Part shown: positions 15,354-34,883 of the stretch, piece by piece
Numbering within the stretch: the stretch's first letter is position 1
Layout: every line of letters begins with the position of its first letter
Notes under the pieces: generated by a model
The model's database searches: none
What the model saw: the letters and a program-made list of their open reading frames with translations, nothing else
What the model was told of the DNA's origin: nothing
Assembly (NCBI GenBank): GCA_964016885.1
Contig: OZ024743.1
Location: 244,032,001-244,096,000 of the forward strand
Length of the DNA stretch: 64,000 nucleotides
From: Eledone cirrhosa
Lineage: Eukaryota
Direction of reading: 5' to 3'
Position numbers and translations under genes: made by a program

Positions 15354-15975
15354 ATATGAAAAAGTAAGTCCTTCATCAGTGACCCTCCAACCGTCCTGGG
15401 CATTTTATCGCTTTAAGGGCCATATACCTCAGGTTGGTGCGAACAACGGCTAAAAAAAGTCGTTGGGACACGTAAATAAAGGGGACGCTAGGGTGAACAA
15501 ACAAAATGGTTTAAGCAACAGAAAGTGAGAAGAAAGAGACAAGGCCCAGATTTCTATGAATATAAACTCGGTGAAATCGTGAACGAGAGAATAAAGACCA
15601 TCAAACCTGGTTGAAATGTGAGCAAGGAAGGAATTTCGCACAGGTCTAACGGGGGAAGAAGAAGGGGTCTGGTCTGCGAATTCTTCTTCCCCCCGTTAAA
15701 CCTGTGCGAAATTCCTTCCTTGCTCACATTTCAACCAGGTTTGATGGTCTTTATTCTCTCGTTCACGATTTCACCGAGTTTATATTCATAGAAATCTGGG
15801 ACTTGTCTCTTTCTTCTCACTTTCTGTTGCTTAAACCATTTTGTTTGTTCACCCTAGCGTCCCCTTTATTTACGTGTCCCAACGACTTTTTTTAGTCGTT
15901 GTTCGCACCAACCTGAAGCGATGAAATGCCCAGGACGGTTGGAGGGCCACTGATGAAGGACTTACTTTTTCATAT
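15354..15975. repeat. ~310-bp-arm inverted repeat (fold-back element) between TA-rich microsatellites
   Basis: Arms 15354-15663 and 15681-15975 are reverse complements with a few substitutions and one ~17-bp indel. Mirrored ORFs 15450..15641 (-) and 15704..15895 (+). Confidence 0.95.
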
Positions 15976-17063
15976 GTAACCCATTTGCAACGCCGCAGCT
16001 CCATTATTATCATATATATATATATATATATATATATATATATATATATATATATATATATATATATATATAACAAGGAAATATAACCGATAGACAGAAA
16101 AGTGATGGAGAGAGCGGTAGGAGTAAACGCAAAAAAGCGGGATGTATATATGTATATATATATATATATATATATATATATATATATAATGAGAGAGGGG
16201 GGGGGGGTAACGAGAGAATGTTACCAGAGTTGAGAAGAAATCACGTATATTTAAATGGGGTTATATATAGAAAGATGATGAAGAATCATGATCTCTGTCT
16301 CTCTGTCTATCTCTCTCTCTCTCTCCCTTCTCTCTCTCTCTCTCTCTCTCTCTCTCTCTCTCTCTCTCTCTCTCTCTCTCTCTCTCTATATATATATATA
16401 TATATATATATATATATATATATATATATATATATATATATATATGTGTGTGTGTGTGTGTGTGTGTGTGTGTGTGTGTGTGCGTGTGTGTGCGAGTGCA
16501 TCAATTCATGGTCTCTGAACAGTTGATGGAGTCAAAGGTGTCGTGGAGTTAACATAGAGCGTGTTTGAGACATTTAAACCTGGCGGAGCTCAACCCTTTC
16601 ATAGTCTGAGCATAGTCGATATATTTGTCGATGAGTGGTTGAGAATTTCACTACGCAATAATGAGGTTTCTCGTCCAATCCCACTGCGTGGCCTCTTAGA
16701 AGACTGTCATTAATAACCTCGAGTCGACCAAAGCCTTGTGAGTGAAATTAGGAAGACGAAAACTGTAGAAGCTCGTCGGATGTATTGTACCTGTAATCCA
16801 AACGGAAAATATCAAATATTGCTTTGAAATAATGTTAAGGATACACGTGTTTGTGGGATACTCAATCACTAATACATTAATTCATGTATTGAGCGTTCAG
16901 TTGATCAAACAAGTGAATTCTCATCGTAGTAAAGATTCATCACCCACACATTAACACACACATTCAAACAGGAGTGAGTCTGAAGCAGTAGTTTTTTGAA
17001 CTGTTAATTTTATGATTACCTTTATATAATAGCTGCGTATATTACTACTTCATTAGATATATA

Positions 17064-17253
17064 AATAATTGTTTCTACTTTTGGCACAAGGCCAGCAATT
17101 ACCCAGTGCATTACTGGTACTTTATTTTATCGACCCCGTAAGGATGAAAGGCAAAGTTAATCTCGGCGGGATTTGAACTCAGAATGGCAAGGGCCGTAAC
17201 TCTATGCGTCAAAGCATGGCGTCCGACCCTCTACCGATACTGCCAATCCACCG
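17064..17253 (-). mobile_element. tRNA-derived SINE (Meta-domain-like core)
   Basis: Full-length reverse copy of the 8426-8617 family. Confidence 0.9.
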
Positions 17254-18059
17254 GCGGGATTTGAAATAATGCTCACTATTCTTTCCCAGTTTGGATTCCT
17301 CCCCAATTTCTCCCTCGGCTAATATTCTCCTTTGGGATTTGAAATTCCTTCCCTGGGAGCCAAGTGCACTCCCTATTTGAGAATCCCTTACCAATTTAAT
17401 TACTAGATAAACCAACGTTTCTTCAAGCGGAAGTAAGCATTAAATCGGCTGGCGTATTAATTCTATTACGGAACTTTCCTTTGCTTTTTCTTTTATTCTT
17501 TTTCTTTTACTGGTTCCAGTCATTAGCCGGCGGTATTGCTGGGGCACCACATTGAATGGATTTTATTCGACTACCTCAACTTATTTGTCTTCTATTTATT
17601 TCTTACTGAACAAGGATTTAACCACAGAGTCATATCTTTAAACTATATTTCATAAAGATTTGAAAAACTTTAGTCAGAAAGTCTTCATCAACAACAATTT
17701 AGTGTCTTGCCTGAAGCCATTGCTGTATGAATGCCATCCATCATGGATGATATCCGATCTAGATATCTTAAATACTTTTGTCAGATTTTCTTTATTATAT
17801 ATTTCATTCTTACCAATTTCATTTCTTCTGTAATTTCTATTTTTTATTGTTTTTATTCTATCATCCTTTCTAAAGTCATCTATAAAATTTATATTCACGT
17901 ACGTTTCGGATATGAGTGAAATTCAAAGCAACTCAATTATCTCTATTTGATAATATTAAAAAAGATTATTGACATAATGATTCGGATACCTTCTTACAGT
18001 AGTAATTTCAAACTTCATTTTTGAGATAATGTTGGTTCTCAGATAGTACAATTTCTTTA

Positions 18060-31836: not shown

Positions 31837-33568
31837 CTACATTTTAAATTTATATTTATATTTAAACGTTGAGTTCAATCTATGTCTGCAGCAACTGAAT
31901 AGATTGCTCCTTAGATTAAGGGAATTTTTAGATTTTAATATAAAGAATATCTCCTCCACGCAGAGGTCACATGTCTCAGATGAGGAATTAAAAGGAATCC
32001 CTCTTGAGACTATATTCCAAAACAACAAATATCCACCTTTATCATGTTTAAGTTGCCAGAGTAAGCCTGATAGTGAAGTTGAAGATTTTTTGCCTGGATC
32101 TGTGAAAGAATTCTTATGATTATTATAGCGAAGTTTAAATTCTGTCGAGGTGGAACCAACATAGTTAAAAGAATTTAAGTCAGTTTTAACATTACAATTG
32201 TATATTATATTTTTAACTAAGCAATTGTTATTTAACGGACATTTAGATTTATTTCTACAGTTACAGTTGTTTAATTGAATATTGTTTAGGCTATTATCTG
32301 TATTTTGGCTAGGTTTTAGATTCCTATTATTTATTCTGTTAATATTTTGTGCTAAGTTTTTGGTGGACGAGTAAGTTAATTTTATAGTATGTCTATTAAA
32401 AATTGAGTGATATTTATGTGTTCTAGGGAAGCGTTTGTCAAGAGCATTAAAAAATAGTTTAGCAATGTGGGTTTTAATATTTAGTGAGAGGGGGGGGGGG
32501 GGCAAACCATATTATATTTCTAGTTCTATTTCTTTTCTGGCTTTTGGAATTATTGTAATGTTTTCTATTATAGTTGTTAAAGTTGTTACCGTAATTAAAA
32601 TTGTTGTTATATTGGTTAGTTTGCCTATTATTATCGATGTACATAATTTTATCACTATATCCTGCTCTAGCTAACGCTTCATTGTAATACTGCGCTTTTT
32701 CGTCGAAAATATTTTTATTAGATGAAATTCTTGAGATACGTTCTTGAACAGAGTTCACTATAGTATTTTTAACAGATCTGGGGTGATTAGAGTTAAAACT
32801 GACATAATTCAAGTTTTCATTTAGTTTGTGAAAAGGATAGTGAAGACATGTGTTGAGATTTAGTGTTACATCTAGGAAATTGACTATTCTATGGTTATTC
32901 TCTATTTCTATTTTTAGATTAAGGTAATTAAAAAATTGTATAATTTGTTTTCTTTTCCTATTTAGTTCAGAGTTATTATTTTCAATAAGTAAAAGCGTGT
33001 CATCACGATATAATCCTCCGGTTACACCAGGTATTTTTCTATGTAGCGAATTAATTATAAATAGGCCCACAAGGTCCGTTACCTGAGCTGAGTCAGATGA
33101 TCCCATAGTAATGTCGAAATTATTATCTCTATCTGCCCTAGTCCATAGTTGGTTATTAAATTCTATCAATGTTTTCCTTGCCGATAATATAATGTGCATT
33201 TCATTGCTAGTTAGGTCTGTATGTTTGAATGCGTAATTTAGTGCCTTATTTAGTAGATTAGGGGTAATAGATGAATAGTAGTTAGCAATATCTAGTTGAA
33301 TAAATTTATTATTATTGTTATATTTAATTTCTTTAAACCACTCAATAACCTCACCAGTTCCCTTCCACAAGTTTAAGTTAGGTAAACCATGTAAGTTTTT
33401 AACCTGCTGTATCACCCTGTCTAGAATGTTTTTGCTAAGTTTACCCAGGTCAGATTTTGATGGTGCAATCAATCTGACTGGCAAATCATTTTCAAAATTT
33501 CTTTTGTGATCTTTCATACTGAAATATGTATGATGAAATAAATATGGTTTTATAAATATAGTTTCCAT
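31837..33568 (-). CDS. Penelope-like retroelement polyprotein (RT + Zn knuckle + GIY-YIG), 5'-truncated, one frameshift at a G-run near 32490-32502
   Basis: RT motifs QLDIANYYSSI, ITMGSSDSAQVTDLVG, LYRDD, VNFLDVTL, SNHPRS. Then CNCRNKSKCPLNNNCL, NIIY...YVGSTSTEFKLRYNNH and CDLCVEE. Confidence 0.93.
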
Positions 33569-34314
33569 TTGTTTAATATCGTATATCTACTCCAAAACTT
33601 GTTGAGTGCTTTATATCAGTTATAAAATATTTACTCGTTGTAACCCAACAATTTTAAATAAAACTTTTGCATATATATATATATATATATATATATATAT
33701 ATATATATAATTTCAGCGAGATCGTATTTCGGCGGGGGACAAAAATAAAACGAAACGCAATCCTCGAAATATGCGGCAAGCGCTCAATAGACTAAAAGAA
33801 GACCAGAGCAATTAATGTATATATATATATATATATGTATGTATGTATGATAACCGCAAAGGTCAAATGTAGATTGTCATAATCTGCCATAATACATATT
33901 TCCGTCGCGTAATGATTACGTAATGCTGTCATCCCGCAACCACCAACACGACTTCACCAGACAGCATCACAAGTAATACGGTTGATATGTAACATATCTA
34001 ATGCAATACAGACAATCGTCAAGAGGACGAAAGAATTTGCTGTTGCTCCTATCAGATTCTTCTGATAAAATCCAGTAAAATACCCTTAGGAAGGGGAAAA
34101 TAATGCTACTGTCTAGTCTATTGTCTCTAAGTGTATTTTACTCTTTCTTTTACGCTATTATTTATAGCGATCAACTGTTGTTACAGTCATTTTCTGCGTT
34201 TGGGATTCCCACGTTATCAAATATATATAGATGTAAGCATCATCTAAACAAAAATACACATACACGCAAATTCATATATATATATATATATATATATATA
34301 TATATATATATATA

Positions 34315-34883
34315 TATATGAAAATATGGGTGAGAAGAATACTGCTGGTTGCACATGGATAACATGTTATAAAATGAGTCCCTCATCAGTGATTTACCAA
34401 ACGATCATGGGTATTTCATCGCATTAAAAATCATTTACCTCACGTTGGAGCGATAATAACTAAAATAAGTTATTAGGACAATAGAAACGCGTAAAGCGAG
34501 TGAGACAAGTAAACAACACAGGGGGAAGCTAACCGAAGATGGAAATAAACACAAGCAACATAGTTATTCTTTCAGCGTAAGCTGTGTGAATATATGAGCG
34601 AGTCAGAAAACAGACCTTTCACTAGTGAATCCGGTGTTAGAAAGAATGAAAACCGTTTTCCCAGCGAACGGGAGGAAGAAAGAAGGGGAGAAACAGGGAC
34701 TGAGTGAGTGGGAGTGCGAGGAAGAGGTCAGTAGAGAGAAAGAGTTAACTGACATGGCAGAGGGGACGAAAGAAAGTAAGAGAAACAGAGAGAACGAGGG
34801 AGCAGTAAGAGAGAAAGAGAGAAACACAGAATTGCAGTTTGGGTAAATATATGAAAATATGGGTGAGAAGAATACTGCTGGTT
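34315..34883 (-). repeat. 533-bp unit with ~35-bp terminal direct repeat, carrying a CUGAUGA motif related to 15354-15975
   Basis: gaaaatatgggtgagaagaatactgctggtt at 34320 and 34853. 34376-34480 is homologous to 15365-15470. Confidence 0.65.

Follow-up and report, generated by a model that had tools for sequence, protein, structure and literature searches.

The question raised by this locus is where, in a conserved structured motif that carries CUGAUGA, the rest of a hammerhead ribozyme is to be found. The motif lies in a 64,000-nucleotide stretch of Eledone cirrhosa DNA (contig OZ024743.1 of assembly GCA_964016885.1), referred to throughout as the window, which consists of AT-rich, microsatellite-rich, animal-type DNA with retroelement remains. 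A sequence-only reading of the window had reported the motif in both arms of a fold-back near 15.4-16.0 kb and at 34376-34480 on the reverse strand, without finding the GAAA and stem III of a hammerhead downstream of CUGAUGA. Both are present upstream of CUGAUGA, within what had been taken for the loop of the stem preceding it. We conclude that the motif is a real, conserved, non-circularly permuted hammerhead architecture outside the published set, carried by a Penelope-type repeat, and that its copies in this window have decayed.

Eckert et al. 2023 (PMC10085705) describe the hammerhead as three blocks, C, G and S, which are assumed to be uninterruptible. The motif contains all three blocks in the order S-G-C, that is, the cleavage site, then GAAA, then CUGAUGA. 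Read 5' to 3', it is composed of strand a, a hairpin h, strands b and c, the letters UGA, block S, a 4-nt linker, block G, a linker of 6-7 nt, strand c', block C and strand a'.

Three homologous copies are found: copy 1, in the left arm of the fold-back (15469-15368, reverse strand), copy 2, in the right arm (15876-15961, forward strand), and copy 3 (34479-34378, reverse strand). A profile of the three, run against the window with nhmmer, recovers them with E<1e-29 and yields no fourth copy, the next best match having an E of 0.45. That match, at 41906-41982 on the reverse strand, has CUGAUGA at its end and a possible 6-bp stem I, and may be a very old copy or a product of chance. Copy 1 has the complete architecture; its one core lesion is the change of G12 to A, at 15406. 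The same architecture is seen in copy 3, which has a U-rich stem I, an intact GAAA (34417-34414) and an A in place of U16.1 at 34435. Copy 2 retains intact G and C blocks and has lost block S through a 16-nt deletion after 15915, which takes GAGGUA and the entire 5' strand of the stem preceding CUGAUGA. The full motif that had been claimed for both arms is thus present in the left arm and incomplete in the right; moreover, the left-arm letters are GCGAUAAAAU, where the earlier reading had GCGAUGAAAU.

We describe the parts of the motif on the reverse strand of copy 1, using the established hammerhead numbering, in which the roles of G12 and U16.1 are established as well. Helix a, a clamp, has the 5' strand GUCC (15466-15469), which pairs with GGAC at 15371-15368 and is invariant in all three copies. 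Hairpin h (15444-15465) has seven base pairs, one of them an A-C mismatch in copy 1, and an 8-nt U-rich loop; three of the seven pairs are changed on both sides between copies, so the covariation previously noted in this hairpin is real. The 5' strand of helix b, UCGC (15439-15442), is the displaced partner of stem II; it pairs with GCGA at 15411-15408 and is invariant in the window. Helix c, the stem I-II interaction helix, has the 5' strand CCAACC (15432-15437), paired with GGUUGG at 15392-15387. Block S (15416-15428) includes the 3' strand of stem III (GGUA), U16.1 at 15424, H17, which is an A at 15423, and the 5' strand of stem I. Block G (15399-15411) reads GCGA, Y11.1 (15407), GAAA (G12 to A15.1, 15406-15403) and URCC, the last being the 5' strand of stem III. 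Block C (15368-15386) comprises the 3' strand of stem I, CUGAUGA (15379-15373), one purine and the clamp strand GGAC. By analogy, the cut is predicted at 15423|15422 in copy 1, and the corresponding position in copy 3 would be 34434|34433.

Most of what a hammerhead core requires can be located in these parts. In all three copies CUGAnGA directly follows the stem I strand, and the previously reported string CUGAUGA-R-GGAC is there in each. Stem I has 7 and 6 bp, and the covariation described earlier for the stem before CUGAUGA is again found, three of seven pairs being changed on both sides. Stem III (4 bp plus A15.1-U16.1) comes after the run G12-A13-A14-A15.1, which is intact in two of the three copies; U16.1-H17, between stems III and I, is intact in the left arm alone, being changed in copy 3 and deleted in copy 2. 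A helix joining stems I and II, with one strand between the G and C blocks, shows 4/4 aligned pairs in the three copies, and duplex folding gives it 6 bp. The one part that fails is a stem II with R10.1-Y11.1 contiguous with CUGAnGA, since the GGAC after CUGAUGA-R does not pair with the GCGA before GAAA; each of these strands pairs instead with its own upstream strand.

Several other assignments were tried and rejected. A stem II of a single R-U pair after CUGAUGA was dropped, the position being U in Naiad_Ovul and C in Naiad-4_Dst, two retroelement consensus sequences discussed below. Types I, II and III require the block orders CGS, GSC or SCG and were rejected on that ground: S-G-C is a non-circular permutation and no circular permutation of the three types (PMC10085705). 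The earlier judgement that the motif is not type I was therefore correct, and the resemblance to type III suggested alongside it lacks support. Likenesses to pistol, twister, hatchet and HDV-like ribozymes were dropped once every hammerhead block had been placed.

In the predicted fold, helix b would stack beneath the G12-A9 pair and take the place of stem II, while the backbone would leave A9 into clamp helix a; helix a and hairpin h would complete a four-way junction, and helix c would link stem I to stem II, the role that helix 'I' plays in type SGC. As modelled, the motif is a member of the class that includes types CSG and SGC, opened right after A9.

For both of those types, cleavage in vitro has been shown, and it falls where predicted (PMC10085705). 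The 583 published SGC sequences are all metatranscriptomic, type CSG is represented by two metagenomic sequences, and among the RNAs a known organism of origin is given only for one weak GCS candidate (PMC10085705). Like type SGC, which includes HRIMA-1 and an SGC variant, the motif has the block order S-G-C, a short linker between stem I and the G block (4 nt, as against typically 3), a helix strand between the G and C blocks directly before the 3' strand of stem I, and one extra base after CUGAnGA, which is often present in type SGC; strand c' occupies the place of helix 'I'. In the type-SGC alignments, however, stem II lies 3' of CUGAnGA, as does the partner of the stem I-II helix, whereas in the motif both partners lie upstream of block S, tied by the clamp and the hairpin, and the motif for this reason breaks the assumption of an uninterrupted block C. 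Compared by reading, the motif does not fit the published SGC RNAMotif descriptor (CGAAA, CUGAUGA(U)G and a downstream stem II). Type CSG belongs to the same cyclic class, and opening it just after A9 gives the layout of the motif, yet it has a different open end and neither clamp nor hairpin. The motif also differs from the metatranscriptomic SGC set in being a high-copy repeat in animal DNA. In the literature that we searched, 'type-SGC' occurs only in Eckert et al. 2023, and no report assigns hammerheads of either the SGC or the CSG type to animal genomes or to the Naiad elements considered below.

Chance, covariation and variation in the repeat family

Since the motif is assembled from short words and short helices, we compare it with what random sequence would supply. 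The strict scan covers all six block orders on both strands, with a stem I of 6 bp, a stem III of 4 bp and at most one core deviation. It returns two matches in the window, both S-G-C and both motif copies, namely the two that keep block S; the descriptor is post hoc, the motif having already been seen, and the two matches are relatives and hence non-independent. Over 150 local dinucleotide shuffles, the mean number of matches of any order is 0.107 and the maximum is 1, with S-G-C arising once overall. When the core is held fixed and the flanks are shuffled, the full architecture is rebuilt in none of 4000 trials for either of the two copies, and the S-G-C arrangement alone is reached in 3/4000 and 8/4000. 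A relaxed scan of the window, which served as a positive control, finds ten ordinary type I cores together with several loose chance fits. A strict sequence pattern of the motif has no locus in viral contigs and none in metagenomes; a looser pattern has 15 metagenome and 8 prokaryote loci in apparently unrelated sequence.

The pairing itself can be assessed across the three copies. The 32 named pairs occupy 84 cells of the alignment, of which 96.4% are paired, as against 28.6-49.4% when the partners are slid by 1-3 columns. Six pairs show double-sided changes, three in hairpin h and three in stem I. Because helices a, b and c are invariant and two rows out of three hardly differ, covariation within the window by itself speaks for h and stem I only. 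In the Naiad consensus sequences, read by eye, the covariation persists; its disappearance in a deeper alignment had been named in advance, together with a lack of cleavage, as grounds for abandoning the motif.

The wider repeat family gives a further view. Contigs from four public runs (of 18 listed, under four organism labels; X1, X4, X6 and X7 below) were aligned to 15356-15675, giving 1396, 41, 11 and 16 contigs. Variants in these runs are unphased, and differences near contig ends were left out of the variant table. Summed contig depth in X1 is 7,000-646,000, which is not a copy number, and it points to a very high-copy repeat. At 15406 the base is G12 in 75688 of 75750 units of depth in X1, in 105.1 of 105.1 in X4 and in 9.83 of 9.83 in X7, so that the majority holds in the three of four runs covering the site, X6 not reaching it. 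Since nearly all contig depth has G, the A of the left arm is a private change. In the four runs, no variant of at least 8% is listed within CUGAUGA, GGAC, GUCC, UCGC, GCGA, CCAACC, GGUUGG or GGUAUA, and none at 15423-15424 (U16.1-H17).

Elsewhere in the motif 13 sites vary, and 12 of these variants fit the fold, being unpaired or keeping the pairing: seven lie in loops or linkers, four keep pairs in stems I or III, and one turns U11.1 into C, which leaves a single core-breaking variant. The compatible share expected is 0.37 for random substitution (p 6e-5) and 0.60 if only transitions are allowed (p 0.014). We also observe in X1 a copy-3-like subfamily with an intact G block (6 contigs), and in X4 one contig that joins a left-arm-type motif to a copy-3-type upstream body.

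To judge from their letters, the three window copies are likely to be catalytically inactive. The deletion in copy 2 (joint at 15915-15916, forward strand) spans the predicted cut site, removing 7 nt before it and 9 after it. Copying over a cleaved RNA could have left such a scar; no joint matching it is listed in the contigs of the four runs.

Penelope-type insertions and Naiad tails

What kind of element carries the motif? The fold-back (15354-16015) consists of two 5'-truncated copies, head to head between (TA)n tracts, whose arms (15429-15655 and 15690-15916) are 99% identical. The right arm carries about 40 extra 3' nucleotides (15976-16015), a tail, and the arms end about 40 nt apart, each at CAUAU entering (TA)n. 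Because 25 X1 contigs continue beyond the turn, the fold-back is a property of this insertion and not of the family. Copy 3 belongs to a 533-bp element (34311-34883, reverse strand) that has a 40-bp tail repeated at both ends and a 3' end running into (TA)n. Here the earlier reading had seen a 533-bp terminally redundant unit like the hammerhead cassettes. The period is real, 34311-34350 matching 34844-34883 over 40 bp at 97.5% with a spacing of 533 bp, and the redundancy is best explained by the tail of 30-40 bp that Penelope-like insertions carry; it is no proof of a 533-nt circular monomer.

A (TA)n target, an inverted 5'-truncated copy and a 30-40-bp tail are the marks that Craig et al. 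2021 (PMC8557442) describe for Naiads, a group of Penelope-like elements (PLEs), and all are present here; the fold-back, the target and the 40-bp tail are marks of Penelope-type insertion. In the anole PLE, two start sites of the reverse transcriptase (RT) define the tail (PMC11167929), and by analogy the offset of about 40 nt between the ends of the fold-back arms fits two such sites. The motif resembles the type I hammerheads found in the pseudo-long-terminal-repeats (pseudo-LTRs) of canonical PLEs and in the non-LTR retrozymes of animals in that a Penelope-type element, or a non-coding derivative of one, has the ribozyme in its terminal repeat (PMC4209133, PMC7229834, bioRxiv 10.64898/2026.07.22.740005). 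It differs from them in that those hammerheads have the circular-class order C-G-S, a short palindromic stem III and tandem arrays (same sources). The retrozyme hallmark, a type I hammerhead in every one of a row of tandem units, is absent here, where the units are single and the order is SGC; the 2026 retrozyme preprint sought type I only.

There is no open reading frame of at least 100 amino acids inside the copies, which may be truncated or non-autonomous. The nearest Penelope-like frame (31837-33586, reverse strand) encodes an RT followed by a C-terminal GIY-YIG domain, with the CxCx5C linker of the Hydra pattern, and was missed by Pfam. It is 5'-truncated at (TA)n and interrupted by a frameshift where a run of C's lies near 32500, and (TA)n tracts stand between it and copy 3. 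Of its named relatives, a protein from Octopus sinensis is the most identical (49%). A second frame with the same RT, GIY-YIG and Hydra-pattern linker, again missed by Pfam, lies at 21827-22717 on the reverse strand.

It is important, then, to ask whether Naiads themselves carry the motif. According to Craig et al. 2021, canonical hammerheads are absent from Naiads, and an 'HHR_half_core' flag is attached to eight Naiad families in which halves of the core fit no descriptor and for which no fold is proposed (PMC8557442). We read the 3' ends of 16 of the 54 consensus sequences in File S5 of that paper by eye, nothing being computed, over the last ~600 nt (Omin in whole); the sample is biased towards flagged families, and records are named by header or by file order. 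All statements about Naiad letters in this paper rest on that reading.

Non-circular hammerheads are seen in 10 of the 16 tails and in seven of the eight flagged families. In the octopus elements Naiad_Ovul and Naiad_Obim, the layout a-h-b-c-S-G-c'-C-a' lies about 80 nt before the 3' end, with a clamp of 4 bp, a hairpin with 7 of 8 bp, a helix b of 6 bp including C11.1, a helix c of 5-6 bp, a stem III of 4 bp plus the A-U pair, A at H17 and a stem I of 6 bp. The 8-nt loop of their hairpin is identical to that of copy 3, and they share the UGA linker as well. The ostracod element Naiad-4_Dst has a clamp of 4 bp, a hairpin of 8, helix b of 6, helix c of 5, stem III of 9 and stem I of 6. In these three elements the letters differ from those of the window motif in every core and junction helix; for example, the clamp is spelled otherwise, and helix b is 6 bp with other letters in Naiad_Ovul and Naiad-4_Dst. 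Since C's follow CUGAUGA in Naiad-4_Dst, position 10.1 must there be supplied by the upstream strand. The squid element Naiad_Esco has the same layout, with an imperfect helix b and hairpin.

Other Naiads have the related forms. Clean CSG tails are found in Parc, 3_Nbra, Hpol and Hcon (nematodes) and in Smim (spider), and a plain SGC tail in Ppla (crab). No hammerhead is seen in the viewed stretches of Omin, Sdum, Mcor, Mmer and Adux, and the tail of Naiad-3_Dst could not be resolved by eye. The window copies share with the 'HHR_half_core' motifs their position near the 3' end, the (TA)n target, the tail and the inverted copies, and they share the layout with Naiad_Ovul, Naiad_Obim, Naiad-4_Dst and, imperfectly, Naiad_Esco. 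Unlike Naiads, they are without a Naiad reading frame, and by eye the bodies upstream of the motif show no likeness to the untranslated region of Naiad_Ovul. On these likenesses of layout, the predicted fold of the motif is likely to be the missing ribozyme of Naiads.

Proposed self-cleavage by intact copies, and its rivals

The idea that a variant ribozyme is involved, raised as one of two possibilities in the sequence-only reading, gains from the placement of every hammerhead block in S-G-C order. Under our structural model, we consider it likely that intact family members are self-cleaving ribozymes with the predicted a-h-b-c-S-G-c'-C-a' fold. The cut would follow GGUAUA, some 105-125 nt upstream of the 3' end of the element, and cleavage would free unit-length RNA from tandem transcripts. 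Because genomic copies keep the cut site intact, the RNA used as template would be either uncut or joined again after cleavage, which fits the dominance of unprocessed substrate in the anole PLE (PMC11167929). A Penelope-like RT/GIY-YIG protein acting in trans would prime on (TA)n, leaving the tail and the inverted copy.

A number of observations weigh against this proposal. Each window copy has one core lesion (G12A in copy 1, the 16-nt deletion in copy 2, U16.1A in copy 3), and among the family variants the core-breaking one, A15.1 to U, occurs in one contig at a depth of 2.63. The motif variants are unphased, and no variant correcting the A-C mismatch of hairpin h is listed in the four runs. 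In the left arm, Y11.1 (alignment position 32) has no clean partner. Helices a, b and c, being invariant among the window copies, receive no covariation support from the window, whose alignment is in effect one comparison; their covariation support comes from published consensus sequences read by eye and no computed alignment. Helices a and b have only 4 bp each (-3.8 and -3.6 kcal/mol). Pseudoknot-free folding does not recover the predicted fold and gives z of -1.0, -1.25 and -1.18, so that folding stability alone is no support. The window copies are linked to no Naiad reading frame, the nearest Penelope-like frame being of the Hydra type. Finally, for the anole PLE, the only one tested in vitro, unprocessed RNA predominates as the substrate (PMC11167929), and a role of cleavage in transposition is accordingly not assured.

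The same observations lend themselves to an alternative in which the fold forms as predicted and is non-catalytic, a hammerhead-derived structure retained near the 3' end as a signal for the Penelope-like RT to dock or start. All three window copies have core lesions, the RT start sites marked by the tail lie just 3' of the motif, and the anole PLE uses mainly unprocessed RNA, with no RNA-seq reads ending at its cut site (PMC11167929). Lesions in single old insertions, however, are expected decay, and the family majority retains all core bases; what is more, the Naiads of octopus, ostracod, crab, spider and nematode preserve CUGAnGA, GAAA and UH even as the letters of the helices change. We regard such a signal as unlikely.

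Conceivably, too, the motif cleaves by some other arrangement, either with the G after the bulged base following CUGAUGA serving as G10.1, or by strand exchange in a dimer of tandem copies. HRIMA-1 carries CUGAUGA-U-G10.1 (PMC10085705), the window copies and Naiad_Ovul have CUGAUGA-N-GG, the U11.1 to C variant would give a G-C pair, and many animal hammerheads work as dimers (PMC7229834, PMC4209133). Against this, the C's after CUGAUGA in Naiad-4_Dst, with its 6-bp upstream helix including C11.1, take 10.1 from the upstream strand, and stem III, at 5-9 bp and non-palindromic, is unlike that of dimer-type motifs; we give this arrangement slightly less weight than the docking signal. Chance assembly of short words and helices within a repeat is very improbable: the helices are short, the descriptor is post hoc, and no hammerhead or other ribozyme is among the best 150 of 241 matches of an Rfam scan of the window (E up to 1), but the flank shuffles never rebuild the layout, none of the 23 chance pattern loci fits S-G-C, and the same layout is found, spelled differently, in several phyla.

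Self-cleavage by intact copies can be set in a broader proposal, which we hold with less confidence though still think probable. The motif would represent an undescribed hammerhead topology in which a four-way junction replaces the link from A9 to stem II, and it would be one of three non-circular forms (CSG, SGC and split SGC) that provide many Naiads, from nematodes to cephalopods, with their ribozyme and are interconverted by shifts of the open end within tandem repeats. If this is true, non-circular hammerheads are abundant in animal genomes and no environmental rarity, and the claim that Naiads lack hammerheads is wrong for a large part of the clade. The single earlier report of non-circular permutations had drawn almost entirely on anonymous environmental contigs, of unknown hosts and role; a motif carried by named retroelements and by a high-copy repeat of an animal would give them a biological context. 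It would also provide a testable answer to why Naiads seemed free of hammerheads, a way of building the hammerhead core with block C split, and a descriptor for ribozymes overlooked by current models.

Other features of the window

The ten ordinary type I cores of the relaxed scan have C3 at 19691-, 19815+, 29481-, 30056+, 30493-, 35036-, 36704-, 41669-, 48240- and 55724+. Several of them have a long or branched stem II and a short palindromic stem III, and four lie in fold-backs. A repeat family at 201-406, 23999-24194 and 55839-55976 (reverse strand) has a very small type I-like core; it has CUGAUGA-A-GGAC in common with the motif, and in these repeats a local stem II and GAAA come next.

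Fragments of reverse transcriptase of the long interspersed element (LINE) type are found at 23215-24018 on the forward strand and, with C-terminal C2H2 fingers, at 38099-41178 on the reverse strand. A dispersed repeat of about 190 bp, with 93-98% identity and a B-box-like stretch, occurs at 7793-7984, 8407-8623, 12208-12328, 17062-17253, 20604-20795 and 27939-28152, and is possibly a young tRNA-derived short interspersed element.

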